From a virus, in IMG/VR virus record IMGVR_UViG_3300042991_000159, positions 1-64,000 of that record: DNA of 64,000 bases. One strand, written 5' to 3'. The translations under genes were made by a program, and so were the position numbers. The notes under the pieces are model-generated. The model did not search any database. It worked only from the letters and a program-made list of their open reading frames with translations, and was not told where the DNA came from. Of this stretch, positions 11,460 to 38,653 are shown in pieces (the stretch's first letter is position 1; each line of letters begins with the position of its first letter).

Positions 11460-12135
11460 ATTTTCTAGTTTGTTTGGCTTGGAGTGGTACGATGCTTTGA
11501 AAGAGGTATTGGAATCTAAGTATTGGAGAGAGATTGGTGCAAAGATAGCTAAGGAGAGAGAGATTTACACCATATACCCGGAGAAGGGTTCTGATACTTT
11601 ATTTAAGGCTTTCCGTACCACTCCTTTATCTCAAGTGAAAGTAGTTATTCTTGGTCAAGACCCTTATCATGATGGTAGTTATGATGGGTTTGCGTTCTCT
11701 AACAGAGACGATGGTCAACATATATCACCTTCACTTAAGAACATTCTGAAAGAAGTTGAAACTGATGTATATAGTGGATTCTATCTTGATTTGAATCCCG
11801 ATCTTGAAAGATGGGCAGAACAGGGAGTTCTTCTTATTAATACAGCACATACTGTACGAAAGGGAGACCCCGGTTCCCATTTGGAGTATTGGAAACCTTT
11901 CACAAATAAGGTATTATTATTGCTACAGCAGCAAGATAGACCGATTGTGTGGATATTGTGGGGTAAGAAGGCAGAAAATGCTGTTGCGGCAGTAAAAAAG
12001 AACGATAAGCATTTATATTTGTCTTCTCCGCACCCTTCTCCTTTCTCAGCTAATTCAGGGTTCTTTGGTAGTAAACCTTTTAGTCAAACAAATAAATTTC
12101 TAACAGATGGTAAACTACAATCAATTAACTGGTAA
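11428..12135 (+). CDS. ung: Uracil-DNA glycosylase (family 1)
   Basis: GQDPYH, SPSLKNI, WAEQGVLLIN, LWG, HPSP and GFFGSKPFS motifs. Confidence 0.95.
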   Translation: MNKMKQQLKDKFSSLFGLEWYDALKEVLESKYWREIGAKIAKEREIYTIYPEKGSDTLFKAFRTTPLSQVKVVILGQDPYHDGSYDGFAFSNRDDGQHISPSLKNILKEVETDVYSGFYLDLNPDLERWAEQGVLLINTAHTVRKGDPGSHLEYWKPFTNKVLLLLQQQDRPIVWILWGKKAENAVAAVKKNDKHLYLSSPHPSPFSANSGFFGSKPFSQTNKFLTDGKLQSINW

Positions 12136-12274
12136 TAGTTCTTATTTTCCAAATTCTTTTAATCTAGAACAACAGCGATTAAATGAGAAAATTTTATCAA
12201 AAATTCGAAAAGAGTTGATAACAGAACAAATAACAGATGAAGAAATATATTATTCACTAATAAAATAATAAAAA

Positions 12275-12580
12275 ATGGCAAACGCACTGGTAAAATTCTG
12301 GGAAAGTATCGAAAAAACAGGAGATGCTATTAAAGCTGCAAGATCAGCACGTTCAGTTCAACGTAAAGCTGAAATGGATGTATCAAAAGCATTCGATGAA
12401 CTTGAAGAAGTTAAAGGAAAGCTTGAAAAAGCTAAAATTGATGCTAAAAATAACGTGGAAACAGGTTTTAAAAATATATACGAAGCCTTTATGAGCGTTA
12501 AAGTTAAGCAACAACGCTTTAATGATGCAGTCACCGTTTATAAGGAACTTTTCGAAGAAGAACCAAAATTACTTTACTAA
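12275..12580 (+). CDS. Hypothetical helical protein
   Basis: Clean ORF with an A-rich initiation region. Confidence 0.7.
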   Translation: MANALVKFWESIEKTGDAIKAARSARSVQRKAEMDVSKAFDELEEVKGKLEKAKIDAKNNVETGFKNIYEAFMSVKVKQQRFNDAVTVYKELFEEEPKLLY

Positions 12581-12583
12581 TGT

Positions 12584-12614
12584 ATTGTATATTATACAAA
12601 AAGTATTATTTTTG
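12584..12614 (+). promoter_or_regulatory. Bacteroidota-type promoter P1 for tRNA block 1
   Basis: -7 element TATTTTTG (12607-12614) and -33-like TTG (12585-12587) with a 19-nt spacer. Confidence 0.65.
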
Positions 12615-12632
12615 TATAAGTAATTACACGTT

Positions 12633-12695
12633 ATGAAAGTTACAACATTACATTTGCTTCCAGAGGAACCGTCTAAACAGAGGGTACTGGAATAA
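12633..12695 (+). CDS. Attenuator leader peptide 1, MKVTTLHLLPEEPSKQRVLE
   Basis: Translated by hand; the run LHLLPEEP matches the downstream Pro/Glu/His/Leu/Leu tRNAs. Confidence 0.8.
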   Translation: MKVTTLHLLPEEPSKQRVLE

Positions 12696-12729
12696 TTGTG
12701 GCTTTGATAAAAAGCTGAATATAACGCAG

Positions 12730-12771
12730 GAACCCTCTTAGTAACACCGGACTAAGGGGGTTCTTTTTTTT
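12730..12771 (+). terminator. Attenuator terminator 1
   Basis: 13-bp stem GAACCCTCTTAGT/ACTAAGGGGGTTC plus T8, ending 2 nt before tRNA-Pro. Confidence 0.9.
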
Positions 12772-12773
12772 AT

Positions 12774-12846
12774 CGGAATGTAGCGCAGTTGGTAGCGTAC
12801 CTGCTTTGGGAGCAGGGGGTCGCAGGTTCGAATCCTGCTATTCCGA
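12774..12846 (+). tRNA. tRNA-Pro(TGG)
   Basis: Cloverleaf folded by hand; CCTGC-TT TGG GA-GCAGG. Confidence 0.95.
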
Positions 12847-12872
12847 CAAATGGCACTAAATAATTCCGTATT

Positions 12873-13010
12873 ATGGCAACAATTAAGACAAAATCAGAAA
12901 GAGTAAAACAAGGTAAGAGAAACCGAAAAGGAATCCATGCCAAAACTCGTAACAGTAAAATAAAAGGATCGAAACATTACGAGAAAGCGTACAAAGGTCA
13001 AGGACGTTAG
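12873..13010 (+). CDS. 45-aa basic protein ending YKGQGR
   Basis: Unannotated ORF MATIKTKSERVKQGKRNRKGIHAKTRNSKIKGSKHYEKAYKGQGR. Confidence 0.7.
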   Translation: MATIKTKSERVKQGKRNRKGIHAKTRNSKIKGSKHYEKAYKGQGR

Positions 13011-13030
13011 GTTAAACCTGATGTTATCAT

Positions 13031-13102
13031 GCCCCGTTCATCTAGTGGTTAGGATAGCAGATTTTCAGTCTGTTCACAAGAGTTCGATTCTCTTACGGGG
13101 TA
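13031..13102 (+). tRNA. tRNA-Glu(TTC)
   Basis: Cloverleaf; GCAGA-TT TTC AG-TCTGT. Confidence 0.9.
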
Positions 13103-13249
13103 CTATTTAACTTGATATGTACTTTCAGGAAAACCTTCTTGAATAGCAGCATTAAGTTCATTCTTAAATAAGTCATAATCAACTATTTTATTAGTTGTCG
13201 AACAACTTGTTAGAACGATTAATAAAAATATTATAGGTATCTTTCTCAT
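13103..13249 (-). CDS. 48-aa small lipoprotein
   Basis: MRKIPIIFLLIVLTS-C16-STTNKIVDYDLFKNELNAAIQEGFPESTYQVK: basic N-terminus, hydrophobic core, lipobox LTSC. Confidence 0.65.
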   Translation of the reverse strand: MRKIPIIFLLIVLTSCSTTNKIVDYDLFKNELNAAIQEGFPESTYQVK

Positions 13250-13314
13250 AAGGTAAAATTAATACACATATATTACAATATGATTAAGAAGAAATTAAGA
13301 TTGCAATAATATAT

Positions 13315-13386
13315 GGTGTTTGTAGCTCAACGGTAGAGTGCCTGATTGTGGATCAGGTGGTGACAGTTCGATCCTGTCCTTACACC
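13315..13386 (+). tRNA. tRNA-His(GTG)
   Basis: G-1:C73, CCTGA-TT GTG GA-TCAGG; two T-T mismatches in the acceptor stem. Confidence 0.9.
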
Positions 13387-13390
13387 CTAT

Positions 13391-13476
13391 GCTCCGGTGG
13401 TGAAATTGGCAGACGCACTGGACTTAAAATCCAGCGATCAGTAATGATCGTACCGGTTCGATTCCGGTTCGGAGTA
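13391..13476 (+). tRNA. tRNA-Leu(TAA)
   Basis: Long variable arm; CTGGA-CT TAA AA-TCCAG. Confidence 0.95.
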
Positions 13477-13495
13477 CTAACTAAAAATTTTTATT

Positions 13496-13951
13496 ATGAA
13501 AATAAACAAAAAGAAGGTAGTTGAACTATCAAGGGATTGGTTTAAAGCGTACCATTGTCCAGATCAGTTTTGGAATGATTTTGCAGAAAAGATTGACGAA
13601 ATTTACTCAGCAGGGGAAGAGGTGAGTGATGAAGAGGAGAGCGAAGAAGAGGGTAGAATTGCAACTGCCATTTTAGATGCCATTAATTCTGGACTGTGGA
13701 AATGGGAGTACAAGAAAAAATTATCACCCGATGATGCGTTTGACTTGCTTACCTGTTTGCAAGATCAAATCCTTAAGGTTAAACTCACCCGCCCTGCCAT
13801 ATCGGAGGAGGAGATAGATCAGTTGACAGAAGAGGTTATATGCGGATTAAAAGCAGGTGATAGAGTATTACCTGAGTTTTATTTCAGGCTCGGAATAGAA
13901 GCCATTAAGGAACTAACTAAAATTAAGCAAGATGAAAACAATAAAATTTGA
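13496..13951 (+). CDS. Hypothetical protein
   Basis: ORF track; no motif. Confidence 0.6.
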   Translation: MKINKKKVVELSRDWFKAYHCPDQFWNDFAEKIDEIYSAGEEVSDEEESEEEGRIATAILDAINSGLWKWEYKKKLSPDDAFDLLTCLQDQILKVKLTRPAISEEEIDQLTEEVICGLKAGDRVLPEFYFRLGIEAIKELTKIKQDENNKI

Positions 13952-14153
13952 AATCGTAAAGGAAATTGAACCAAGTGGTAAAGTATGGTTTCATGTAAGA
14001 ATGAATGGAAGTCATCAAACGGCTAATAGAAGCTATGAGGAAGCTAAAAGAAGTTTGGAAACCTGTAAAACGAATGTGGTTAAATGGGGATATGAAAAGT
14101 ATGAAGAGGTTATTTTTTCAGAATTAGTTGACACATAAAGCCATTAAGGAACT
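13899..14153 (+). repeat. 16-bp direct repeat AAGCCATTAAGGAACT flanking a small ORF
   Basis: Copies at 13899-13914 and 14138-14153. Confidence 0.8.
13932..14138 (+). CDS. Hypothetical protein
   Basis: ORF lying between the direct repeats. Confidence 0.6.
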   Translation: MKTIKFEIVKEIEPSGKVWFHVRMNGSHQTANRSYEEAKRSLETCKTNVVKWGYEKYEEVIFSELVDT

Positions 14154-14276
14154 TAACAGATAAGAGAAGGAAATATTGCATAGATAGTTGAATAAAATAA
14201 GAATAAGTGTGCAATTATTTACTATTTTAATAAGAGCCAAAACACGGAATAAAACAACGCCAAAATACGGAACTAT

Positions 14277-14375
14277 ATGGAAAACACAGACGCAATAATA
14301 TTAATAGGTGGATTTTTATATCTATTATTTTTTGTATGGATGCCTTCAAGTTATGACGATAGAAGAGAAAAATGA
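14277..14375 (+). CDS. 32-aa single-pass membrane peptide
   Basis: MENTDAIILIGGFLYLLFFVWMPSSYDDRREK; ATGA overlap with the next ORF. Confidence 0.5.
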   Translation: MENTDAIILIGGFLYLLFFVWMPSSYDDRREK

Positions 14376-14893
14376 TTAATTGGATAAAATGGAAACAGTT
14401 GATAGCTGGACATACAGCTAAATTAAAAATAAGAATAGTTGTTTCTTACATATCTGTTGGTGATGGTAATGGTGATTTAGCATATAATACATGTAGAGAA
14501 ATCATTGATCGAAATGAAAAAGGTGCATTTGCACACATGGCTCTTGAAGAAGTATTCAGATATCTTGAAAAAGGTTGGAGATGGCCTGATTATATGAATG
14601 ATATAATCCATTCAGGAATGCATAAACAAACAGATATGACTCAAGACCCTTGGATACTTGCATATTGTTGCGCTGTACACCTAGATCGCTATGACCTAAT
14701 AGAGAGATATAGACCTAACTTCTGGTTGTTTCTGCCCGACAAGTGGGCTTGGAGAAGATCACTACTTGGAAAGGTAAACTTCTATTGGCTATGGCGAAGA
14801 ATAACACCTTACAAATGGATGCAACATTTTGTTTATGTATTTTATGGATACATGGAGCTTGCATATAAGAATAAAGTTGTACCTTTACATTGA
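14372..14893 (+). CDS. Hypothetical Trp-rich protein
   Basis: ORF track. Confidence 0.6.
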   Translation: MINWIKWKQLIAGHTAKLKIRIVVSYISVGDGNGDLAYNTCREIIDRNEKGAFAHMALEEVFRYLEKGWRWPDYMNDIIHSGMHKQTDMTQDPWILAYCCAVHLDRYDLIERYRPNFWLFLPDKWAWRRSLLGKVNFYWLWRRITPYKWMQHFVYVFYGYMELAYKNKVVPLH

Positions 14894-14919
14894 ATTTTAA
14901 CCGTTAAAATTATATAAGC

Positions 14920-15369
14920 ATGAAGAAAGTAACAAACGTTTTTAAAGTATTTTTATCGTTAGTTTTACTAATGGTGGTAGGAATTGTAGCATTTGGTCAA
15001 ACAACTGTTCCAACTATTCCAGATTGGACCGACCTCTATGAAAACTACGGTGTATATTTTGCTACTGCTGGTGGAATTGCTGGTATTGCAATGTTCTTAG
15101 GTGAACTCGTAATTCGAGTATTGAAGCTAGCTGTAAAATGGCAAAAAGTAGCTATAATTTGGGTACTATCAGTTGTGGCATCATTTGTAGGTGCATTTGT
15201 GCTCAACGTAGGTTATTTAGCAGAAGCAACATGGTGGGAAACTGTTATATGGGGAGTTTTCTCAGGATTGTTAGCTAATGGTATATGGTCTAGTAACGTA
15301 GCGTTCATTAAATCAATTCTTGAATTTCTCGTTGAGCTTATCAAAGCTAAAATTCCTGCAACAGTATAA
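14920..15369 (+). CDS. Multi-pass membrane protein, holin-like
   Basis: Signal-like N-terminus (AFG/Q), three further hydrophobic helices, GLLANG motif. Confidence 0.55.
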   Translation: MKKVTNVFKVFLSLVLLMVVGIVAFGQTTVPTIPDWTDLYENYGVYFATAGGIAGIAMFLGELVIRVLKLAVKWQKVAIIWVLSVVASFVGAFVLNVGYLAEATWWETVIWGVFSGLLANGIWSSNVAFIKSILEFLVELIKAKIPATV

Positions 15370-15399
15370 AAACTTTAGGGGTGAAATGCCCCCTTTTAC

Positions 15400-15481
15400 G
15401 CTCTTGTGGGGGAATTGGCAGACCCGCTAGTCTTAGGAACTAGTGTCGAAAGGCGTGTCAGTTCGAGTCTGACCGAGAGTA
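15400..15481 (+). tRNA. tRNA-Leu(TAG)
   Basis: Long variable arm; CTAGT-CT TAG GA-ACTAG. Confidence 0.95.
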
Positions 15482-15517
15482 TGATTTTAAATGTTAACAT
15501 TAAAAAAACAATCAGTT

Positions 15518-15697
15518 ATGAACGCAAGAAAATCAGCAGTGTTATTTGCACTTGGAATTGTATGGTTAGGTGCTGTTATATGGGGTTTTGCTCATGGAGT
15601 ACAACAAACTGAAGTTGGTGCTAAAATCGCTTGGATTGGTGGATCATTAGTATTTACAGCTTTAGGTGTATTTCTTTCTTACAAATTGAAAAAATAA
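15518..15697 (+). CDS. Small two-helix membrane protein
   Basis: MNARKSAVLFALG...; two hydrophobic segments; ATG at 15518 preferred over 15491. Confidence 0.65.
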   Translation: MNARKSAVLFALGIVWLGAVIWGFAHGVQQTEVGAKIAWIGGSLVFTALGVFLSYKLKK

Positions 15698-15715
15698 AGT
15701 ATATACAAAGAAAAA

Positions 15716-15746
15716 TTTGTTTTTCTCGAAAAAGGAGTTAAATTTG
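15716..15746 (+). promoter_or_regulatory. Bacteroidota-type promoter P2 for tRNA block 2
   Basis: Consensus match: TTTG (15716-15719), 19-nt spacer, TAAATTTG (15739-15746). Confidence 0.8.
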
Positions 15747-15770
15747 TATTGTACTTAAATTTTTAACACA

Positions 15771-15848
15771 ATGTTAGTTCGATTTAGATATACGAAATAT
15801 TCAAGTTGCAAGGGCACATCCTCTGCAAGATGGGACTTCTATATCTAA
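15771..15848 (+). CDS. Attenuator leader peptide 2, MLVRFRYTKYSSCKGTSSARWDFYI
   Basis: Translated by hand; the 15-codon run RFRYTKYSSCKGTSS matches all ten downstream tRNAs. Confidence 0.85.
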   Translation: MLVRFRYTKYSSCKGTSSARWDFYI

Positions 15849-15893
15849 CTAAAAGAAAATTTTTTATTTTTCATTGTTCAGATTTTGTGATCT

Positions 15894-15925
15894 AAGTCCC
15901 ATTCTTAAACGAGTGGGACTTTTTT
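15894..15925 (+). terminator. Attenuator terminator 2
   Basis: 11-bp stem AAGTCCCATTC/GAGTGGGACTT plus T tract, ending 3 nt before tRNA-Thr. Confidence 0.9.
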
Positions 15926-15928
15926 ATT

Positions 15929-16001
15929 GCCACTGTAGCTCAGTTGGTAGAGCTGTTCACTTGTAATGAACGGGTCGGGGGTTCGATTCCTCTCGGTGGC
16001 T
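15929..16001 (+). tRNA. tRNA-Thr(TGT)
   Basis: Cloverleaf; GTTCA-CT TGT AA-TGAAC. Confidence 0.95.
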
Positions 16002-16029
16002 CAAGTTTAACTTAAAATTCTTTGACGTT

Positions 16030-16524
16030 ATGGCAGTATATTTTATAAATAGTAATGGTATGCATATTAGTAGATCAACGATAGGTCTTATTGATAGTAA
16101 TCAATATAATGTGCAAGTTGGTATTTTACATGGTCCTAACGAAGGATATAAACTTTCGTTTGATGGAGAGATAATTAGAGAACAATTACCATTAAACGAA
16201 TTTATAGTAAGATTAATCGAGGGAGAAACGATTGATAAAAATGGTCCAGAAATACATCGTGATATTCAAACTGTAATTAATGCTTTAAATCGTGGAAAAA
16301 AAGAAGAGATAGAAGCAGTAGCTAGATGGTTAGATCATAGATATTCTAATTTAATAAGAAACGGGAAAATAATATTAATGCAGCATACTTATCGACATTC
16401 TTATTATAGTGAAAGTATTGGTAGCAGAGAGAGGTCTATTCAACAGTCTCAACCTATGACAACAGATGAAGCATATCAAAAATCAGTAACAGATGATGAA
16501 GTCTATTACACAATGATTAAATAA
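16030..16524 (+). CDS. Hypothetical protein
   Basis: ORF track. Confidence 0.65.
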   Translation: MAVYFINSNGMHISRSTIGLIDSNQYNVQVGILHGPNEGYKLSFDGEIIREQLPLNEFIVRLIEGETIDKNGPEIHRDIQTVINALNRGKKEEIEAVARWLDHRYSNLIRNGKIILMQHTYRHSYYSESIGSRERSIQQSQPMTTDEAYQKSVTDDEVYYTMIK

Positions 16525-16525
16525 C

Positions 16526-16599
16526 GCCTCTATAACTCAGTTGGCTAGAGTACCACCCTTTTAAGGTGGGAGTCCTGCGTTCAAGTCGCAGTGGGGGTA
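16526..16599 (+). tRNA. tRNA-Lys(TTT)
   Basis: CCACC-CT TTT AA-GGTGG. Confidence 0.95.
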
Positions 16600-16602
16600 C
16601 AA

Positions 16603-16668
16603 TTAATGACTAATATATTAGTCATTAAGTACCAAAATAAGGCTTAATGACTAATATATTAATCATTA
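16603..16668. repeat. Tandem palindromes
   Basis: Perfect 26-bp palindrome TTAATGACTAATATATTAGTCATTAA (16603-16628) and a near copy at 16644-16668. Confidence 0.85.
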
Positions 16669-16669
16669 T

Positions 16670-16743
16670 ACACACGTAGTTCAACTGGATAGAATAGGTG
16701 GCTACGGACCATCTGGTTGTGGGTTCGAGTCCTACCGTGTGTA
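16670..16743 (+). tRNA. tRNA-Arg(ACG)
   Basis: GGTGG-CT ACG GA-CCATC. Confidence 0.95.
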
Positions 16744-16759
16744 CTAAAAATTAAAAATT

Positions 16760-16891
16760 ATGATACGTAAAATTAGAAAATATATCTACGATAAAAATGA
16801 AGTTAGAAAAATAGCTGGTACTTTTAATCCTTATATTCCATATGAGAAGAGAAAAATAATGGCTATGAGATATTTAGAAATGCATAAATAA
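16760..16891 (+). CDS. 43-aa basic hypothetical protein
   Basis: MIRKIRKYIYDKNEVRKIAGTFNPYIPYEKRKIMAMRYLEMHK fills the gap between two tRNAs. Confidence 0.5.
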   Translation: MIRKIRKYIYDKNEVRKIAGTFNPYIPYEKRKIMAMRYLEMHK

Positions 16892-16892
16892 T

Positions 16893-16965
16893 GGAGCAGT
16901 AGCTCAGTCGGTAGAGCACCAGACTGAAAATCTGGGTGTCGGCAGTTCAATTCTGTCCTGTTCCA
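16893..16965 (+). tRNA. tRNA-Phe(GAA)
   Basis: CCAGA-CT GAA AA-TCTGG. Confidence 0.95.
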
Positions 16966-17037
16966 CATTTAAGAAGTAGTGCAGTTTCGTAGTGGCGGGT
17001 TCTGCGCTCGAAAGAGAACCAAAAAACCCATACCCAT

Positions 17038-17111
17038 GCGGGTTTAGCTCAATTTGGCAGAGCGTCTGCCTTCCAAGCAGAGGGTTGAGAGTTCGAGTCT
17101 CTTGATCCGCA
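17038..17111 (+). tRNA. tRNA-Gly(TCC)
   Basis: TCTGC-CT TCC AA-GCAGA. Confidence 0.95.
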
Positions 17112-17113
17112 CT

Positions 17114-17273
17114 AAAGTATCACTATCAGCATAGGGATTGCCCTAATGTTCTGAGAGAGTGAACGGTTTGGGATTTTGTAAAAAGAATCACTTATTAAGG
17201 CTCTTCTGAGACATTCAAGGAACTCGTAATGTAGTCTTCGGGGAAAGCGGTAGGACTCCGTAAGTGATACTTT
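17114..17273 (+). ncRNA. Unidentified structured RNA (about 160 nt)
   Basis: 11-bp closing stem AAAGTATCACT/AGTGATACTTT with internal hairpins; GC-richer than its surroundings; lies between two tRNAs. Confidence 0.55.
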
Positions 17274-17285
17274 TTAAAATATAAT

Positions 17286-17369
17286 GGGTCGGTGGCTGAG
17301 TGGTTAAAGGCGTTGGACTGTAAATCCAATCGTGTCATGCGTTCGGGGGTTCGAATCCCTCCCTGCCCA
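17286..17369 (+). tRNA. tRNA-Tyr(GTA)
   Basis: Long variable arm; TTGGA-CT GTA AA-TCCAA. Confidence 0.95.
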
Positions 17370-17373
17370 CAAT

Positions 17374-17444
17374 GGTTCTATGTCCGAGTGGCTAGGTCAC
17401 TGTCTGCAAAACAGTTTACACTGGTTCGAGTCCAGTTAGAACCT
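17374..17444 (+). tRNA. tRNA-Cys(GCA)
   Basis: ACTGT-CT GCA AA-ACAGT; U73 discriminator. Confidence 0.95.
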
Positions 17445-17463
17445 CTAACTAAAAATAAGAAAT

Positions 17464-17682
17464 ATGAATTTATACATGGTAGAATTTGACACTACAACTT
17501 ATATAGTCGTGGCAAAAGATGAAGAAGATTTACTTGATCTCTTACACAAAAGAGATTCTGGTTTCCAAAAAGAAGTAGATAGAGGTATTGTTTATATGTG
17601 GGATTTAAGAACTATAGACCCTGTTGAAGTAACTGTTATAAACCAAGATAAACCAAAAATAGTATTTGTCGTATCCCATTAA
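17464..17682 (+). CDS. Hypothetical protein
   Basis: ORF between tRNAs. Confidence 0.65.
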   Translation: MNLYMVEFDTTTYIVVAKDEEDLLDLLHKRDSGFQKEVDRGIVYMWDLRTIDPVEVTVINQDKPKIVFVVSH

Positions 17683-17688
17683 AGTATT

Positions 17689-17772
17689 GGAAGTAATCTG
17701 GCTGGATGAAGGACTGCTCTTGAAAAGCAGTAATACAGTGATGTATTGTGGGTTCGAGTCCTACTGCTTCCG
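17689..17772 (+). tRNA. tRNA-Ser(TGA)
   Basis: Long variable arm, G73; CTGCT-CT TGA AA-AGCAG. Confidence 0.9.
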
Positions 17773-17777
17773 CATAT

Positions 17778-17854
17778 GCATCTGTAGCTCAGTTGGACAG
17801 AGCAACGCCCTTCTAAGGCGTGGGTCAACCGTTCGAATCGGTTCAGGTGTACCA
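17778..17854 (+). tRNA. tRNA-Arg(TCT), encoded CCA
   Basis: ACGCC-CT TCT AA-GGCGT. Confidence 0.95.
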
Positions 17855-17856
17855 CT

Positions 17857-17940
17857 GGAAGTATTCTCCTAAATGGTAAAGGTCCACCCTGCTAAGGTGG
17901 TGTCATTCGTGGCATATAGGTTCGATTCCTGTTACTTCCG
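17857..17940 (+). tRNA. tRNA-Ser(GCT)
   Basis: Long variable arm; CCACC-CT GCT AA-GGTGG; atypical D arm. Confidence 0.9.
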
Positions 17941-17972
17941 CTAACTAAATTATTAATTTAAGAGAGAAAAAA

Positions 17973-18662
17973 ATGAAAACATCAGTAAACATGATTCGTA
18001 AGATAGGTATGTTCGAAATCGAACAACGAACTTTCGATGGATATTTTGAAGCAAATATGTTACTTCAACAATGGAATAGAGTTAAACAGAATACACCAAA
18101 AAAAATAGTTGAATTTCTAAGAAATGAAAAAACAATTGAGTTTATTAAACAAATTAAGAAAGAAGAAGGTATTTATAACTCATTGATACACAGTAGGGGA
18201 GAAAAATCACCAACTGATAATCAAGTAGTTATAATAATCAAAGGAAGAAGAACAAAAAAAGGTCCAACACCAGATCGTGTATTTATGCATCCTTATTTAT
18301 TTGTTGATTTTGCAATGTGGTTAAATCCTAAATTCAAATATCATGTAATTAAATTTGTTTACGATTCGTTAATGGATTATAGAAATAATGCAGGAGATTT
18401 ATATAAAGGACTTTCTCAATCTGTCAGTACACTTACAAATATAAGTTACGCTAGAGTAGGCAAAGGTTTGAATTTCATTGTATTTGGTGAGCATAAAAAA
18501 GGAATTCGTAATACTGGAACAGTTGAACAATTACAGGAACTTAACGATATTCAAAAACAATTAGCGTTTAGTATTGAAATGGGACTTATCACTTCTTTTA
18601 AAGAATTAATGGATACCATGATAAAAATATATAGAAAAAAGCAAAAATTTAATTTATTTTGA
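17973..18662 (+). CDS. KilA-N domain DNA-binding protein
   Basis: QRTFDGYFEAN.LL and MHPYLFVDFAMWLNPKF motifs. Confidence 0.85.
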   Translation: MKTSVNMIRKIGMFEIEQRTFDGYFEANMLLQQWNRVKQNTPKKIVEFLRNEKTIEFIKQIKKEEGIYNSLIHSRGEKSPTDNQVVIIIKGRRTKKGPTPDRVFMHPYLFVDFAMWLNPKFKYHVIKFVYDSLMDYRNNAGDLYKGLSQSVSTLTNISYARVGKGLNFIVFGEHKKGIRNTGTVEQLQELNDIQKQLAFSIEMGLITSFKELMDTMIKIYRKKQKFNLF

Positions 18663-18670
18663 TAACTTTG
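18663..18670 (+). promoter_or_regulatory. Bacteroidota-type -7 promoter element P3 for tRNA block 3
   Basis: TAACTTTG matches TAnnTTTG; no clear -33 element. Confidence 0.55.
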
Positions 18671-18692
18671 TCTTATAATATTTCAAACTTTA

Positions 18693-18797
18693 ATGATCAT
18701 GGCAAAGAAATCAGGTAATAAATCGGCTCCCAAAGATAAAGGAATGGGACAAGGTAAAAAAGGTTCTGGTAAAAAAGGATCATGCAAAAGAAAATAA
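18693..18797 (+). CDS. 34-aa Lys/Gly-rich basic peptide
   Basis: MIMAKKSGNKSAPKDKGMGQGKKGSGKKGSCKRK; stop is 1 nt before leader 3. Confidence 0.6.
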   Translation: MIMAKKSGNKSAPKDKGMGQGKKGSGKKGSCKRK

Positions 18798-18798
18798 A

Positions 18799-18879
18799 AT
18801 GATGAAAACATTAGTTATTAATATATGGAACCAAATTGATGTGGATCAGGCGATCTACAATCAGGGAACTATGTATTAA
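18799..18879 (+). CDS. Attenuator leader peptide 3, MMKTLVINIWNQIDVDQAIYNQGTMY
   Basis: Translated by hand; the 14-codon run VINIWNQIDVDQAI matches all eight downstream tRNAs. Confidence 0.85.
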   Translation: MMKTLVINIWNQIDVDQAIYNQGTMY

Positions 18880-18906
18880 AAAAACCTTTTGAACTATTCA
18901 ACATAG

Positions 18907-18938
18907 AACCCTGATTCCCCTAAGAGTCAGGGTTTTTT
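18907..18938 (+). terminator. Attenuator terminator 3
   Basis: 11-bp stem AACCCTGATTC/GAGTCAGGGTT plus T tract, ending 3 nt before tRNA-Val. Confidence 0.9.
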
Positions 18939-18941
18939 ATT

Positions 18942-19016
18942 GCTTCTTTAACTCAGTTGGTTCAGAGTGCAATTTTTACAAGATTGAAGTCGGTGGTTCG
19001 AATCCATCAAGAAGCA
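18942..19016 (+). tRNA. tRNA-Val(TAC)
   Basis: CAATT-TT TAC AA-GATTG. Confidence 0.9.
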
Positions 19017-19094
19017 CTATCGCATAGAGGTTTGCATGATGTGGAGTCTTCCTCTCGTTAAACAAAAAAATGGTTACAGGGATGTGGCCGCCAC

Positions 19095-19167
19095 GGGGAT
19101 TTAGCTCAGTTGGAAGAGCACTTGATTTGCACTCAAGAGGTCATCGGTTCGACTCCGTTAATCTCCA
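19095..19167 (+). tRNA. tRNA-Ala(TGC)
   Basis: G3:U70 identity pair; CTTGA-TT TGC AC-TCAAG. Confidence 0.95.
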
Positions 19168-19212
19168 CTAAGTAATGTTCATTGACGTATTGTTTAATTA
19201 AAATTATTTTAT

Positions 19213-19626
19213 ATGGTAGAAAAATTAAAAGTCTACACTGCTGGTGGATTTCATGGTGATTGGAGAGAACGAATAAACAAAATTCTTGCAGAGAAATTTA
19301 TTGTTCTTGATCCTTTCAGTAAGGAATTTGATTCTTCTAAAGGTGAACGTAAACATTTATCATATGAGGAATATACAGTTTGGGATTTATGGGCAATTAG
19401 AACAGCAGATATAGTATTTGTATACTCTCAACGTACTAATCCCGGTCAAGGTTATATAGTTGAAGCTGGATATGCTAAAGGACTTGGTAAAACTGTTATT
19501 CTTGTAAGAGAAGAAAACAATGAACATATGCCTGACAAATATCTGAATTTTATTGATTGTGTAGCAGATTTTGTTTGCCACGATTTCAATGAAGGTGTTG
19601 AGTTTCTTACCAGACTTTCACTTTAA
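19213..19626 (+). CDS. Nucleoside 2-deoxyribosyltransferase-like protein
   Basis: VYTAGG, DLWAIRTADIV and G...EAGYAKGLGK motifs. Confidence 0.8.
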   Translation: MVEKLKVYTAGGFHGDWRERINKILAEKFIVLDPFSKEFDSSKGERKHLSYEEYTVWDLWAIRTADIVFVYSQRTNPGQGYIVEAGYAKGLGKTVILVREENNEHMPDKYLNFIDCVADFVCHDFNEGVEFLTRLSL

Positions 19627-19634
19627 AAGAATAA

Positions 19635-19708
19635 TGCCTTGTAGCTCAGTCGGTTAGAGCAGTGGACTGTTAATCCAAAGGTCGTAAGTTCAAGTCTTAC
19701 CGAGGCAG
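19635..19708 (+). tRNA. tRNA-Asn(GTT)
   Basis: GTGGA-CT GTT AA-TCCAA; G73. Confidence 0.95.
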
Positions 19709-19710
19709 CT

Positions 19711-19827
19711 ACTCTCTATATCTCGGATCACGCCCTGAAATGGGAACCGTGGCTGGTATCCACTATAAACTACTACCGGAACAAGTGATTGGATAACTTT
19801 ACGTTTGCGGGATTTGATATAGAGAGT
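19711..19827 (+). ncRNA. Unidentified structured RNA (about 117 nt)
   Basis: 12-bp closing stem ACTCTCTATATC/GATATAGAGAGT; exactly fills the spacer between two tRNAs. Confidence 0.55.
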
Positions 19828-19832
19828 TTTAT

Positions 19833-19906
19833 TGACCCTTAGCACAGATGGTTAGTGCAATTCGCTCATAACGAAAAGGTCGTGTGTTCGATTCACACAG
19901 GGTCAA
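19833..19906 (+). tRNA. tRNA with CAT anticodon (Ile2/lysidine-type or elongator Met)
   Basis: ATTCG-CT CAT AA-CGAAA; paired 1:72. Confidence 0.9.
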
Positions 19907-19951
19907 CAATTTTTCGTATCTTGTAAGCTTAACCAAGTAAAATTTTAAATC

Positions 19952-20755
19952 ATGTGTTTTAAAAACTTATTTAATAGACCTGAGAAACCAGAATTACATC
20001 CTGCAAGACGAGCATTATTATTTGGAATAAACGATTATCCCGGTAGTAGCAGTGATCTAAATGGTTGCGTTAACGATGTTTATGACGTTAAAGAAAAATT
20101 AGATTCTCTTTATCCAGATTTTGTAACAAAAATGTTTACGGATGTAAATGCTACAATATCTACTTTTGAATACGAACTTGCAAAAGAAATTGAAAAACTT
20201 CAAGCAGGAGATGTTTTATTAGTTCATTATTCTGGTCACGGTACTTATGTAACTGATAAGAGTGGTGATGAAGAGGATGGATACGATGAAGCTCTTTATC
20301 TTTATGACGGACCATTAATTGACGATGATATTCGTGGTATGCTAGAAGGTATTCCAGATGGTGCAACGGTAGTACTCATATTTGATTGCTGTTATTCTGG
20401 TACAATTAGCAGATCGGTGTTACCCAAGATAGAAAAAAACCGATTTTACCCAAATCCTGTTAGTAAAAAAAGTACTGGTTCTTTAAAAATAAGAAACAGA
20501 TTTGCGAAAGGTGATAATATGAGATGGATAACATTCTCAGGGTCAGATGAACATCAGACAAGTGCAGATGCTTATATTGATGGAAAATATAATGGAGCAT
20601 TTACATATTTCTTATTAAAATATCTTAAACCGGGAATTACTTATAAACAATGGGCAAACTATGTAAGCGAAGCCTTTGAAAATTCTCGTTTTGAACAAAG
20701 ACCTCAAATAGAAGGACCGGAAGGATTATTAAATAACTTAATATTTTACATTTAA
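19952..20755 (+). CDS. Caspase-like cysteine protease (peptidase C14, metacaspase-type)
   Basis: ALLFGINDY, LNGCVND, HYSGHG and FDCCYSG dyad motifs, QTSADA, GAFT, QRPQ. Confidence 0.92.
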   Translation: MCFKNLFNRPEKPELHPARRALLFGINDYPGSSSDLNGCVNDVYDVKEKLDSLYPDFVTKMFTDVNATISTFEYELAKEIEKLQAGDVLLVHYSGHGTYVTDKSGDEEDGYDEALYLYDGPLIDDDIRGMLEGIPDGATVVLIFDCCYSGTISRSVLPKIEKNRFYPNPVSKKSTGSLKIRNRFAKGDNMRWITFSGSDEHQTSADAYIDGKYNGAFTYFLLKYLKPGITYKQWANYVSEAFENSRFEQRPQIEGPEGLLNNLIFYI

Positions 20756-20764
20756 TATAATATT

Positions 20765-21217
20765 ATGAGAATAATAAAAAGAATTGATCCTTTTTTAAAG
20801 AATGTAGATATAGATAAACTACTTTCAAAATGGTTTCCAGAAATGGAAGAGGATAAAAAAAGAAACATTAAGAGTGAAATATTTAAAAATATTCATTCGA
20901 TTAGAACATTTTGGTATGATAATCCTGATCTTAGATTTTCTCAAGTGCTAATTAATAGTAATTTGATTCCTAATTATCCTGGGATGTGGTACTACTATGA
21001 AGAAGATGAAATCCTTATAGATCAAGGACATGAACTAAGAGATATACTCTTTTGGGGAAGAAATTACAATAAGGAAATGGAACGTCTTCCAAGGACAGAA
21101 TGGATTTTAATCAAGGACATGAGTACTGATCATATTCAGGCTGTCTTAGACGGTGAATTTACCACACACTCAGATTATTTAAAAGCATTTAATGACGAAT
21201 TAGAAAGAAGAAAATAA
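20765..21217 (+). CDS. Hypothetical phage protein
   Basis: W..NPDLRFSQ and IKDMSTDHI motifs recur in phage hypotheticals. Confidence 0.7.
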   Translation: MRIIKRIDPFLKNVDIDKLLSKWFPEMEEDKKRNIKSEIFKNIHSIRTFWYDNPDLRFSQVLINSNLIPNYPGMWYYYEEDEILIDQGHELRDILFWGRNYNKEMERLPRTEWILIKDMSTDHIQAVLDGEFTTHSDYLKAFNDELERRK

Positions 21218-21224
21218 TAATTAC

Positions 21225-21297
21225 TGGTGTGTAGTTCAGTTGGTAGAATAGTGCTCTCCAAAAGCAAAGGTCGGGAGTTCGAGTCTCTCCATGCCAG
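21225..21297 (+). tRNA. tRNA-Trp(CCA)
   Basis: GTGCT-CT CCA AA-AGCAA. Confidence 0.95.
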
Positions 21298-21304
21298 CAA
21301 ATAT

Positions 21305-21377
21305 AGCCTCTAGGTCAAACGGTTAAGATGTCAGCCTGTCACGCTGTACGGAGCGGGTTCAACTCCCGTAGGGGCTG
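21305..21377 (+). tRNA. tRNA-Asp(GTC)
   Basis: TCAGC-CT GTC AC-GCTGT; G73. Confidence 0.9.
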
Positions 21378-21429
21378 CTATATTTAAAAACATATAATTA
21401 GCATCAAATATGTTATTTTATATGCAAAT

Positions 21430-21503
21430 GCTCATGTAACTCAGTTGGTTAGAGAGCCTCTCTGATAAGGAGGAAGTCGGTAGTTCAAATCTATCCATGA
21501 GCA
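21430..21503 (+). tRNA. tRNA-Ile(GAT)
   Basis: CCTCT-CT GAT AA-GGAGG. Confidence 0.95.
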
Positions 21504-21517
21504 CTATTTAAAAAGTA

Positions 21518-21583
21518 AAGGGAAGATCGGTCCGATTCCGAAGCAGAGTAATCTGTACTAGTGTAATGGCTATGCACACCCTT
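21518..21583 (+). ncRNA. Circularly permuted tRNA-like element (T arm, capped acceptor stem, D arm)
   Basis: AAGGG, TCGG-TCCGATT-CCGA, GCAGA-GTAA-TCTGT, TA-GTGT-AATGGCTAT-GCAC-A, CCCTT. Confidence 0.55.
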
Positions 21584-21588
21584 GTCAT

Positions 21589-21662
21589 TGACTCATGGTG
21601 TAACAGGTTAACACGTGGCACTTTGGATGCTAAGAGTCTCCGTTCGAGTCGGAGTGAGTCAA
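21589..21662 (+). tRNA. tRNA-Gln(TTG)
   Basis: U1:A72; TGGCA-CT TTG GA-TGCTA. Confidence 0.95.
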
Positions 21663-21686
21663 CTATATTAACTAAAAACAAAATGT

Positions 21687-22214
21687 ATGAAAGTATTACG
21701 TCTTATTTTGACGAGAAAATGTAATCGTAGTTGTGAGAGATGTTGCAACAAACAAGACGCTTTTGTTGAAAACCGTGTTCCTAATATTCTTGAACTTGGT
21801 TATAATTTTAGTGATTTTGATACAATTATTCTTACAGGTGGTGAACCATTGCTTGAATTTGACTCTCTTAAATTAACGATAGCTTTAATTAGAAAAGTTA
21901 GTCCAGATTCAAAGATTATTGTGTACACAGCGAATGTTCAAATGAAAGATGAAATCATTGAACTACTATATCTTGTAGATGGAATTACTGTAACAGTACA
22001 CGAACAAGAAGATGTTGATGATTTTAATCGCCTAAACTTTTGGATGCTTCGATTGAAGCGTTACAAAATAGATAATAATAAAACTTTGCGACTTAATATA
22101 TTTAAAGGTGTTAAAATATATATGCAAAACTCAAGTCTCTGGAAGATAAAAGATAACATAGAATGGATCGAAGATTGTCCATTGCCAGAGAACGAAATAA
22201 TTGCACAATATTAA
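21687..22214 (+). CDS. Minimal radical SAM protein
   Basis: CNRSCERC (CxxxCxxC) and LTGGEP. Confidence 0.85.
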   Translation: MKVLRLILTRKCNRSCERCCNKQDAFVENRVPNILELGYNFSDFDTIILTGGEPLLEFDSLKLTIALIRKVSPDSKIIVYTANVQMKDEIIELLYLVDGITVTVHEQEDVDDFNRLNFWMLRLKRYKIDNNKTLRLNIFKGVKIYMQNSSLWKIKDNIEWIEDCPLPENEIIAQY

Positions 22215-22222
22215 CATTTTTA

Positions 22223-22253
22223 TTGTGTATATTAATTTAAAGTGTTAGATTTG
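22223..22253 (+). promoter_or_regulatory. Bacteroidota-type promoter for the last tRNA
   Basis: TTG (22223-22225), 20-nt spacer, TAGATTTG (22246-22253). Confidence 0.6.
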
Positions 22254-22264
22254 TTAATGTATAT

Positions 22265-22338
22265 TGCGAGTTGGCGCAGATGGTCAGCGCACAAGATTCA
22301 TGATCTTGGGGTCACGGGTTCGAGTCCCGTACTCGCTA
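22265..22338 (+). tRNA. tRNA-Met(CAT), initiator-like
   Basis: T1.T72 mismatch, TGCGAG acceptor; CAAGA-TT CAT GA-TCTTG. Confidence 0.9.
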
Positions 22339-22417
22339 CAAAACTTATTATTTGGTTCATAGCAATAATGTTTTAGGTTAGTGATTATTTGGTTAAGTGA
22401 GAGTAGTGAGAATGAAG

Positions 22418-22445
22418 AAGGAGAGCTGGTTGGCTCTCCTTTTTT
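22418..22445. terminator. Terminator between convergent transcription units
   Basis: AAGGAGAGCT/GGCTCTCCTT stem plus T tract. Confidence 0.85.
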
Positions 22446-22473
22446 ATTTCCCTTACGAAAAAATTTACCGTTA

Positions 22474-25400
22474 TTATTTCTTGTAAACTTGATCAGCAGC
22501 ACTTTGTAATTTTTGATACTGAACCGGTCCCGGTATAAGTTTCTGGATGTCTCTCCAAGTACGACTCTTACCTTTGCTCGGACCACTCTGAAGTATATCT
22601 CCTTCTGCTCCTTCTGTAATCAGAGTCATAGCAGAATCTATAGCTTTAGCAGCATCTACTACAACTGAGAAAGCAGGAATAGCATTACGTGCAAGACGTT
22701 CAAATTCAATTGGATTGATATAGAATTGTACATCAGTAGCGAGTCTTCCTATTTGATTAATCATGAATATGTAAGCCATCTTCTTTTTTGAATTTTTATC
22801 ATCATCATCGTCTACTGCTGCTTTCAGAGCAAGTGTTAGACCTGTAAGTAATAGGAATATAAAAATTTCAGTCATGTTTTTACGCATATTAGCAGCATCG
22901 GTTTCAGTAAAACCTTCACCTATTAAATCATCAAATTTTGTATTAAATCCTACAAGTTTACGTAAAAGTTGATACGTAAGATTAAATGTACTACTTATTG
23001 CATTCATATTATTTTCAGCAGTATAATAAGCAACATAACTACGATAACGACCTTTTCTATTAAGAAAATTTTCACCTGTTTTTTGATTAATCAGTTGATA
23101 ATCATCAAATTCAGCACGAAATCTTTCTGCAAATCCCTGATAAGCCCATGTACGAAATTGACTCAAAGCACGACCAATAAATTTACGTTTTACAAGTAGA
23201 GGAGAATCAGGATCATAGTTACCATGATTCATTTTAACAAGTTTATCAATACGTCGTTTAAGTTCAAAAATTTTCTTTTCATCAATAGTAACTCCGTCTT
23301 TAAGGTTGCCGTCGGTTTCATAGGCATCCCATAAACTAATTTCTTTACCGTCTGCTGTTGTAACTTTTTCTTCCATCATCATAGCAATCATCACAGGAGC
23401 CTGATTAAAGTATTCCGAACGTGATTGCGGAGAAAAAGGATTAGCCCATTCAAGCCCTTTACCTACTCTCTTGAACATACTTGGTGTAGTGTCTTTATAT
23501 ATTTCATTACGTGCCTCTTTAAGAGTATCAAACTTGTTCATAAGTTCTCTAATCTTTTTTGCATTACCGTTAAGACCGTTCCATGTATTAAATGAGTAGT
23601 TACGTCCAACAGAATTTAATACAAGAGCTTGAGCCTTCCAAAAATTCTTACTTGAGTAATTACGTCCGTCTGAAGCTTCTATTACGTTAGACATAATACC
23701 AAATCCCATATTAGCAAAAGCAGCAAAAACGTTCCAACCCATACCTTTAAGTTGGATATATTTAAGAAGAATATCACCATATTTAGATGCAATTTTTACA
23801 CCACCCAGTACGTCGAGTTGTTCTCGAACAACTTCAGACCTAGCATCGTAAGTATCTTGATCTATTTTTTCTTTCTCTAAAAGACTGTCAAGTTCTTTTA
23901 AACTATTTTCTAAGAGCGTTTTGAGTTCCTTCTCTTTCTCAGTAAGAATCTTTTTCTTGCTTGCACCTTCTGGTCTATTAGAGGGATAATGCCAATAAGC
24001 TACTTCCATAAAGTTGTCAAGCATTTTTCTTAAATTTTCTAATCCTTTTTCAGTAATTAGATTTTTGTGTTTATCTCTAACATCTTGACCAGAAGCGTTT
24101 GTTCTTTTTTCAAGACCACGACGAATAATATCATCTGCAATACGCATTTGATCTTCGATAGCTGCACGATGATTATATCCAATAGCCATAGCAGAAAAAG
24201 CCTTCATAATACGTCCAAGATCAAAAGATTTTTCTTGAGCGAGTTCATTCAAGTAATCTTTTCTCCATTTATCTACAAGCTCTGTATCAGGACTTTTACC
24301 GTTATTCTCAGCTCTATAACTTGTATCTTTTAATTCAAGATAGTTTTTTAATTTTTGACGATTATTTGTGAGATGCTGGAATTGAAAATCTTTTCTATCT
24401 TCGGGAGTAGCAGTTGTTCCAAGATCATCTGCTCTAACTGCTTTTCTGAGATCATCTTTACTTTTACTAAATCCTGCTAATAGACCGTTTTCTGTTATTA
24501 CTTCAGATAGTTTTTGATCTAAAATAGGAATAGAGTTCATCTGCATAAAAGATATTTTTTCGTGAGGAAGATATAGTTTCATGATTTTCATCAGATCAAA
24601 CATAAAATTATATAATTCCAAATAACTCTTATTGTTTTGAATTTGTTGGAATTTCTGATCATGAAATCCTGTATCTTCTCCATCAGCAATTTTTTTAGGA
24701 ACAGAACGTACATACTTATTAGTAGGATTAATATGAAGTCCATTAGGTCTTACATTATCAAATCCTTTTTCCATAGCTTCTGCATACAAGAAAGGAGAAT
24801 TTCTTATTTCCCATCCTTCAATATAACTTTCTATAATAGCTACATTTTCTCCATATTCACCTTCCGCTATTTTTCTACGTGATTCTCTATCAATCTTATA
24901 ATCTCTAATTTTCTTTTCATTAATATCATAATATTCTTTATAACCGTCTTCTCCAAGTAATTCTTTTAGTTCGGCTATATGAACCTCTTTTTGTGCTTGA
25001 GTAGGTTCAGGAGCATTAGTAAGTTCTGCATCCCAGAATAGAATACGTGGGTCGAATACAGTAGTAAATTTTTGCTGTTCCCCCATAAATTTTCTATTAG
25101 CCCTTTTAATTATTTCAAAAGCAGCTCTATCATCTGTTTGTTTATAAGCAGAAGCAAAAGCACGATCTCTTTCATTTCTTATTTTGGATTGCCAATCAAA
25201 AAATGATTGAGTCCAACGAAACACCATTTCTCCTGTTAAGCGTGAATCATCATTACTTTGAGTCTGCCTAAAAATATCAAAGTTTTTTAAACCGGTAGCT
25301 TTTATAAGACTATCTAATTTAGCAAACACTTGGTCTGTTTCTAATTTAGCAGCATAATTTGCATCTTTCACCCAAGCGTGCATTGCTTGGAGAAGAATAT

Positions 25401-38652: not shown

Positions 38653-38653
38653 A

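Follow-up and report, generated by a model that had tools for sequence, protein, structure and literature searches.

We have analysed a candidate regulatory element that precedes the first of three blocks of tRNA genes in a viral genome from IMG/VR (record IMGVR_UViG_3300042991_000159). The window, that is the whole stretch of DNA that was analysed, comprises the first 64 kb of this 99.8-kb record, which is rated complete by CheckV, and all of the results are computational, consisting of sequence comparison, statistics and RNA fold predictions. Judged by sequence, the source of the window is a crAss-like phage; one of its open reading frames (ORFs) matches the Crassvirus muzzle protein (PF25731, E = 6.7e-196) and another resembles the RNA-polymerase subunit of IAS virus and cr111_1. 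Between 12774 and 22339 there are 24 tRNA genes, all on the plus strand, which together cover all 20 amino acids. Three strong intrinsic terminators, which end 2-8 nt before tRNA-Pro (12774), tRNA-Thr (15929) and tRNA-Val (18942), cut this array into three blocks, and a fourth terminator at 22417 closes it.

The element lies directly upstream of the first block, with all of its parts on the plus strand. A promoter-like box, TATTTTTG, which matches TAnnTTTG, is located at 12607-12614, 18 nt 5' of the ATG of a leader ORF of 20 codons (12633-12695; ATG at 12633, TAA at 12693-12695). Codons 6-13 of this ORF (TTA CAT TTG CTT CCA GAG GAA CCG, 12648-12671) form an uninterrupted run encoding Leu-His-Leu-Leu-Pro-Glu-Glu-Pro. 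Overlapping the Pro and Glu codons is region 1 (12658-12674; TTCCAG .. ACC.TCT), which in the minimum free energy (MFE) fold is the 5' arm of a protector hairpin. Region 2, CAGAGGGTACTGGAA (12678-12692), contains AGAGGGT (12679-12685) and CTG (12687-12689) and belongs to two helices, as the 3' arm in the protector and as the 5' strand in a predicted antiterminator. It is separated from the terminator by a 6-bp spacer hairpin (12700-12716) which on folding stacks inside the antiterminator structure. Region 3 (12727-12742; CAG at 12727-12729, ACCCTCT at 12732-12738) is the 5' arm of the terminator and the alternative partner of region 2, and region 4 (12751-12771) contributes the 3' arm, to 12765, together with the T-run (12764-12771). 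The terminator stem (12728-12765) has 15 bp including 6 GC pairs, an 8-nt loop and a T8 run extending to 12771, with a predicted energy of -22.1 kcal/mol. Just 2 nt past the T-run begins tRNA-Pro(TGG) (12774-12847), the first gene that would be gated, followed by tRNA-Glu(TTC) (13031-13103), tRNA-His(GTG) (13316-13387), tRNA-Leu(TAA) (13391-13477) and tRNA-Leu(TAG) (15400-15481), the last tRNA of block 1 before the next promoter-leader-terminator module; from 12771 to 15894 no strong plus-strand terminator was found. A first-pass annotation made from the sequence had proposed an attenuator at this position, and every one of its coordinates was exact when checked against the window. This includes the run of control codons, the precise complementarity of AGAGGGT to ACCCTCT with its possible extension by CTG/CAG, and the protector hairpin, in which TTCCAG (12658-12663) and CTGGAA (12687-12692) close an inner ACC.TCT/AGA.GGT helix.

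The codon run is made up only of Leu, His, Pro and Glu codons, with all four present, and these are the amino acids of the five downstream tRNAs (Pro, Glu, His, Leu and Leu). Leu, His, Pro and Glu account for 19% of residues in the long ORFs of the phage, and just 3 of 300,000 simulated 19-residue peptides with the phage's composition reached a run of at least eight residues covering all four (approximately 1e-5). When all ATG-initiated ORFs of 12-45 codons in the six frames of the 99.8-kb genome were ranked for this amino-acid set (n = 1159), the leader came first. Comparable leaders precede the other two blocks. Sister module 2 (15771-15925, plus strand) has a 25-codon leader and a terminator ending before tRNA-Thr, and sister module 3 (18799-18938, plus strand) has a 26-codon leader and a terminator ending before tRNA-Val. 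Leader 2 contains a 15-codon run with all eight of the eight amino acids of the next 10 tRNAs, and leader 3 a 14-codon run with seven of the eight amino acids of the last 9 tRNAs. For the amino-acid set of its own block every leader ranks first among the ORFs, which for blocks 2 and 3 means that the ORF directly 5' of the block's terminator is the best in the genome; as a within-genome control of specificity, each leader achieves runs of only 1-2 for the sets of the two other blocks.

The codons used in leader 1 include those most used by the phage for Leu (TTA and CTT), His (CAT) and Glu (GAA), and the putative sensor therefore samples what phage mRNAs demand. The first-pass annotation had pointed out that both purine-ending synonymous codons are sampled for Leu (TTR), Pro and Glu; this is so in the window, but the feature is not conserved in relatives. 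Tuning to isoacceptors was considered as a further property and rejected: both TTR and CTN Leu codons occur in all 10 homologs of leader 1 (described below), a weak result, as it would often arise by chance and the homologs are related, and leader 2 of one relative, L017, lacks an AGR codon although its block holds tRNA-Arg(TCT).

Relatives of the locus were reached via a 101-aa protein encoded upstream, by a scan of JGI metagenomes together with IMG/VR. Nine distinct relatives carry the same module behind this protein and, with the window, make up the set of 10 homologs. In the relatives a leader ORF of 15-24 codons lies at the same position, with unrelated N-termini, and an intrinsic terminator between the leader ORF and the tRNA genes is kept in all homologs. 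The 8 loci with visible tRNAs repeat the order Pro-Glu-His-Leu(TAA), and Leu(TAG) comes next in those whose contigs reach far enough. L017, which lies on a 99.8-kb contig, has 23 tRNAs in the stretch examined and the same three tRNA-preceding terminators, and L015 has the first two. The sister modules of the window, L017 and L015 are laid out like module 1, and in them the antiterminator varies in concert with the terminator.

The runs of the relatives comprise 5-10 codons drawn from Leu, His, Pro and Glu in permuted order, as in LHLLPLEP, LPLHLHLEEP, LLPLHLEHEP and LLHLHLEEP. Within the stretch ending at a conserved Glu-Pro, 80 of 81 codons belong to the set, the exception being a Ser codon which splits the stretch in L015; N-terminal of the run no residue belongs to the set, except for one Leu-His pair left outside the run of L015 by this Ser codon. 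A composition that stays constant while the order is permuted is what selection on the identity of the codons, and not on a peptide sequence, predicts; it would not be expected of a functional peptide. Leaders 2 and 3 of L017 and L015 follow the same pattern. The best conserved stretch of the intergenic region in the alignment is GAACCRTC...(C)AGAGGGTA..GGAA, within which AGGGTA is invariant. Some homologs read the (C)AGAGGGTA segment in the frame that gives ..Asn-Arg-Gly-stop and others in the one that gives ..Lys-Gln-Arg-Val-Met-Glu.., and its conservation is therefore at the level of the RNA. Its pairing partner changes with it, in that L009 and L015 have TGAGGGT with ACCCTCA in place of the AGAGGGT with ACCCTCT of the others, and in L016 the antiterminator helix is lengthened through AAACAG:UUGUUU. 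The terminator core AACCCTC is kept in seven of the 10 homologs, and the distal stem varies freely with the 3' arm compensating.

The MAFFT alignment was unreliable across the variable spacer and the terminator, and for this reason folding and duplex calculations were done for each sequence individually in place of RNAalifold or column pair counts. The full-length MFE structure of the window combines the protector, the spacer hairpin and the terminator at -46.1 kcal/mol (z = -5.6), and none of 200 dinucleotide shuffles was as stable. The antiterminator duplex between region 2 and the terminator 5' arm is predicted at -15.1 kcal/mol in the window and at -11.7 to -15.5 kcal/mol in the homologs, with cognate pairs of leader and terminator outperforming shuffled pairings (p = 0.008). 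The duplex of regions 1 and 2 is predicted at -13.7 kcal/mol (homologs, -8.3 to -16.7 kcal/mol), and here the same comparison over the homolog set was marginal (p = 0.058); the register of the protector does move along with the permuted codons, as seen in L017, with TCCATT/AATGGA in L015 and with a 9-bp version in L019. Folding was repeated on transcripts truncated before the 3' arm of the terminator, with the 5' part masked as it would be by a ribosome stalled at each control codon, and the MFE structure paired region 2 with the 5' arm in all 10 homologs. If masking was extended to the stop codon plus 13 nt the predicted pairing of the 5' arm dropped in most homologs; the stop codon is found within region 2 or at most 9 nt past it in 10 out of 10. 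In the window the protector and antiterminator structures are approximately isoenergetic (-25.0 versus -25.2 kcal/mol; difference -4.8 to +5.7 across the homologs), and such near-equal energies fit a bistable switch which would be decided by the order of synthesis and the position of the ribosome.

The strength of the upstream complement is not a general property of terminators in this genome. Among 13 terminator-like hairpins ranked by their upstream complement to the 5' arm, the three that precede tRNAs are first, third and fourth, and clean terminators elsewhere have complements of only -6.4 to -12.3 kcal/mol versus the -15.1 kcal/mol found here. A cmscan search of 11500-23500 with E values up to 1 detected no Rfam leader family (His, Thr, Trp, Leu, Phe) and no T-box in 12580-12773, where the only match was a terminator-type one, to the SpF19 small RNA (sRNA), with 26.7 bits against a gathering score of 60 (E = 0.22).

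The box upstream of the leader matches TAnnTTTG, the -7 promoter element of Bacteroidota. TAnnTTT[G/A] is present 4-18 nt before the leader ATG in all 10 homologs, within a conserved A-rich/GTATTA context, and such a box also precedes leaders 2 and 3 in L017 and leader 2 in the window. In six of the 10 homologs the spacing between box and ATG is 4-7 nt, which in those six would make the mRNA leaderless or nearly so. The conserved box is placed between the upstream gene and the leader ORF, and this position would make the terminator part of a new transcription unit and not simply the end of the upstream gene. A separate promoter for tRNA-Pro on the 3' side of the terminator, which the first-pass annotation had named as fatal to its proposal, is excluded by the gap of only 2 nt between T-run and tRNA.

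Taken together, these features make it likely, in our judgement, that the element is a ribosome-mediated leader-peptide transcription attenuator which senses the supply of charged tRNAs and gates the first tRNA block of the phage. This supports the interpretation given in the first-pass annotation, as each element is present and all are kept in nine distinct relatives. From the sequence we infer the activity of the promoter, the translation of the leader, the coupling of translation to transcription and the direction of the response. In the proposed four-region mechanism the host RNA polymerase would start at the TAnnTTTG promoter and a ribosome would begin the 20-codon leader almost at once. 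With charged Leu, His, Pro and Glu tRNAs plentiful, the ribosome would reach the stop codon at 12693 and cover region 2 (AGAGGGT..CTGGAA), or, if the ribosome had already gone, region 2 would be held by region 1; in either case the terminator arms would pair and transcription would end at the T-run, 2 nt before tRNA-Pro. Were any of these tRNAs scarce, the ribosome would stall within 12648-12671 and cover region 1, and the freed region 2 would pair with ACCCTCT (plus CAG) before the 3' arm of the terminator had been made. No terminator would then form, and transcription would read through into tRNA-Pro, tRNA-Glu, tRNA-His, tRNA-Leu(TAA), the intervening ORFs and tRNA-Leu(TAG). The net effect would be a negative feedback in which the tRNA set is supplied when decoding of its codons is slow, with the other 19 tRNAs handled likewise by the two sister modules.

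A number of observations weigh against this reading. The host is uncultured. In the AT-rich window TAnnTTTG occurs at chance frequency (91 matches versus 82 expected), and it is therefore solely its conserved position that identifies the box as a putative promoter. The run has 1-3 codons per amino acid, with His present once, and according to classical theory so few codons are less sensitive than long homopolymeric runs. The homologs are related, so that counts among them are not independent events, and they have one tRNA block composition in common, such that the clade offers no case of a changed tRNA set with a changed leader. An A-A mismatch is found at the end of the 7-bp antiterminator core in L011 and L018, and L016 and L019 pair in partly different registers. 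With a downstream ribosome footprint of 13 nt, part of region 2 would already be covered when the ribosome stalls at the final one or two control codons. Finally, the antiterminator is favoured at equilibrium even without a ribosome in seven of the 10 homologs, which means that any contribution of the protector depends on folding kinetics and the order of synthesis.

This last point also favours the idea that the leader regulates read-through by a simpler or different read-out than the four-region model, to which we give a small but real chance. In the simpler version read-through is the default, only a ribosome at the stop codon masks region 2 and permits the terminator, and the protector is idle; the marginal co-variation of the protector and the location of the stop codon, always in or just past region 2, agree with it. 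In another version termination is unaffected, and stalling alters how the precursor is processed or how stable it is. The outer protector helix (TTCCA/TGGAA) is nevertheless kept, with its register shifting with the permuted codons in L015, L017 and L019, and the full-length MFE structure holds the protector together with the terminator. In addition, the polymerase makes regions 1 and 2 ahead of region 3 and so gives the protector a kinetic advantage, which likewise argues against an idle protector. Less probable still is an ordinary intrinsic terminator that insulates the tRNA block, with an incidental or untranslated small ORF and tRNAs produced by leaky read-through. Strong hairpins with T-runs are common at gene ends, the ORF is short enough for gene callers to miss and the promoter motif is no more frequent than chance, yet an insulator would not account for a codon-set match of about 1e-5 per leader which occurs three times, each with its own block, nor for a leader composition kept across relatives while the order is permuted. 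It is also at odds with the conservation of region 2 as RNA that pairs with the 5' arm in all homologs, with the conserved box between the upstream gene and the ORF, and with other terminators in the genome, which lack comparably strong upstream complements.

We regard as equally improbable that the ORF encodes a functional micro-protein, or that the terminated transcript of ~140-150 nt is a trans-acting sRNA, with the likeness to an attenuator being secondary. An LHLLPE(E)PS-like peptide core does recur in several relatives, and the terminated leader transcripts of some bacterial attenuators act as sRNAs. On the other hand the permuted order, the length of 15-24 residues and a C-terminus read in two frames are incompatible with a conserved fold or motif of a micro-protein, the Rfam search gave no family other than the terminator-type match described above, and a role in trans leaves three block-specific codon sets unexplained.

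More distant homologs of the 101-aa protein (L020-L027) and UDG homologs (L003-L006) have no leader/tRNA module at that position, and their few tRNAs have no terminator or leader in front. Among INPHARED phages blastn gave only generic tRNA similarity and tblastn with the 101-aa protein gave no match. In IMG/VR, pattern scans with the leader core and the region-2 motif found no contig beyond the one already known. No RNA run is listed among the sequencing runs that contain this phage. In contigs from four DNA sequencing runs 12529-12776 was not covered except by tRNA look-alikes, and PHROGs held no family for the neighbouring small proteins. In one of the relatives, L009, a Cys-rich ORF resembling the N-terminus of a homing endonuclease (~1800-2186) follows the leader and terminator in the place of tRNA-Pro; the ORF may have been inserted between attenuator and tRNA genes, and the contig ends ahead of any tRNA.

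Block 1 contains additional features. Between tRNA-Pro and tRNA-Glu lies an ORF for a very basic, Lys/Arg-rich protein of 45 aa (12873-13010, plus strand), and in L014 tRNA-Pro is likewise followed by a similar ORF; this and the other ORFs within block 1 would share control by the putative attenuator. A 48-aa ORF on the minus strand (13103-13249), with a lipoprotein-like signal composed of a hydrophobic stretch followed by Cys, separates tRNA-Glu from tRNA-His and appears to be an insertion into the block, since these two tRNAs are 2-5 nt apart in relatives such as L017. From tRNA-Leu(TAA) to tRNA-Leu(TAG) there are four intervening ORFs in the window, and in L017 and L015 the two genes are 262-266 nt apart. 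Directly 5' of tRNA-Leu(TAG) a small GGGG/CCCC hairpin with TTTT (15378-15399, plus strand), also seen before tRNA-Leu(TAG) of L016, may be a weak terminator or a processing signal within the block. Further downstream, the 69-nt gap between tRNA-Lys and tRNA-Arg(ACG) (16601-16669, plus strand) is filled by a near-perfect, AT-rich hairpin of 20 bp (-22.4 kcal/mol), which might serve in processing or be left over from a mobile element.

Upstream of leader 3 is an ORF of 32-34 aa rich in Lys, Gly and Ser (18693-18797, plus strand), with its stop codon 1 nt from the ATG of the leader and a TAACTTTG box upstream (18663-18670), and leader 3 may thus be the second cistron of its transcript. The same ORF has a run of 14 for the amino-acid set of block 2, but with only five of the eight amino acids. 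Met is the only amino acid of block 3 that is absent from the run of leader 3. TAnnTTTG boxes are located on the plus strand 25 nt 5' of the first tRNA-Met(CAT) (19800-19807) and 11 nt 5' of the last tRNA-Met(CAT) (22246-22253), and both tRNA-Met(CAT) genes might have their own promoters. Outside the array, an ORF of 4072 aa (26494-38712, minus strand) is as large as would be expected of the giant RNA polymerase that crAss-like phages package in the virion.

Classical leader-peptide attenuators include trpL, hisL, leuL and pheL, as well as the multivalent thrL (Thr/Ile) and ilvL (Ile/Val/Leu). A general description of the ribosome-mediated attenuators of amino-acid operons is given in PMC1183508. 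At the sequence level the predicted architecture described here matches such attenuators, and what would be new is the tRNA targets. The classical layout consists of a promoter, a short translated ORF with cognate regulatory codons, a 1:2 hairpin over the codons, a 2:3 antiterminator, a 3:4 terminator and a stop codon placed so that the terminating ribosome masks region 2. The counterparts here are a putative promoter, a presumably translated ORF with cognate codons, a predicted 1:2 hairpin with marginal co-variation, a predicted antiterminator, a terminator and a stop codon in the corresponding place, and, as in the thr and ilv leaders, several amino acids would be sensed by one leader. Unlike in the amino-acid operons, the genes regulated here would be tRNAs and a few small ORFs, and not genes for biosynthesis or aminoacylation, which makes it likely that the ribosome is limited by the supply of tRNA and not of amino acid. 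Further differences are that each leader has 1-3 codons per amino acid for 4-8 amino acids in one unbroken run, and that the element is phage-encoded, in a Bacteroidota-type context with no Shine-Dalgarno sequence and nearly leaderless in six of the 10 homologs. In E. coli the pheST genes for phenylalanyl-tRNA synthetase are under a leader-peptide attenuator. This resembles the element in that a component of the translation apparatus is controlled and not a biosynthetic pathway, and it differs in having a synthetase as its target, a Phe-only leader and a cellular genome. T-box riboswitches similarly switch between terminator and antiterminator in response to the state of tRNA; they do so without translation, by binding uncharged tRNA through a specifier codon and the T-box motif, and they control synthetase or amino-acid genes, whereas the element here has an ORF with many different codons and matches no T-box model.

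The nearest functional analogue in print is the trn operon of Anabaena sp. PCC 7120, a long tRNA array induced under translational stress, whose promoter is controlled by the repressor TrcR, which binds to direct repeats (PMC8421152, PMC10272220). Common to both is an accessory array, of about 23-26 tRNA genes in Anabaena, which is silent, or in the phage would be silent, until translation is impaired; the Anabaena response differs in being global, not specific to a codon set, and in relying on a promoter repressor. The text of PMC8421152 contains none of the words attenuation, leader peptide and terminator. Direct repeats of the TrcR type were not seen in the sequence of 12581-12632, for which no dedicated search was made. 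A full-text literature search found no paper on leader-peptide attenuation of tRNA genes, either in phages or in cells.

The regulation of phage tRNA genes is largely unknown, and these tRNAs are usually seen as constitutive helpers for codon usage or as replacements for host tRNAs destroyed by defence systems. With a length of ~165 nt the element described here would be a compact sensor of how fast a defined set of codons is decoded and could report tRNA availability, and the presence of three block-specific leaders in one genome provides a built-in specificity control for experiments. More speculatively, and with considerable doubt on our part, the three leaders together might act as an isoacceptor-resolved monitor of decoding which switches on a near-complete private set of 24 tRNAs block by block, including to replace host tRNAs depleted by the codon demand of the phage or cut by anticodon-nuclease defences, and the terminated leader RNAs might have extra roles. 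If this were true, the leaders would be an inducible counter-defence wired directly to the speed of the ribosome. If the attenuator proposed here is real, the range of trp/his-type attenuation would grow to include a new class of target genes, phages and expression signals of the Bacteroidota type, and the tRNA supply of this phage would be under demand-driven feedback with the ribosome itself as the read-out.

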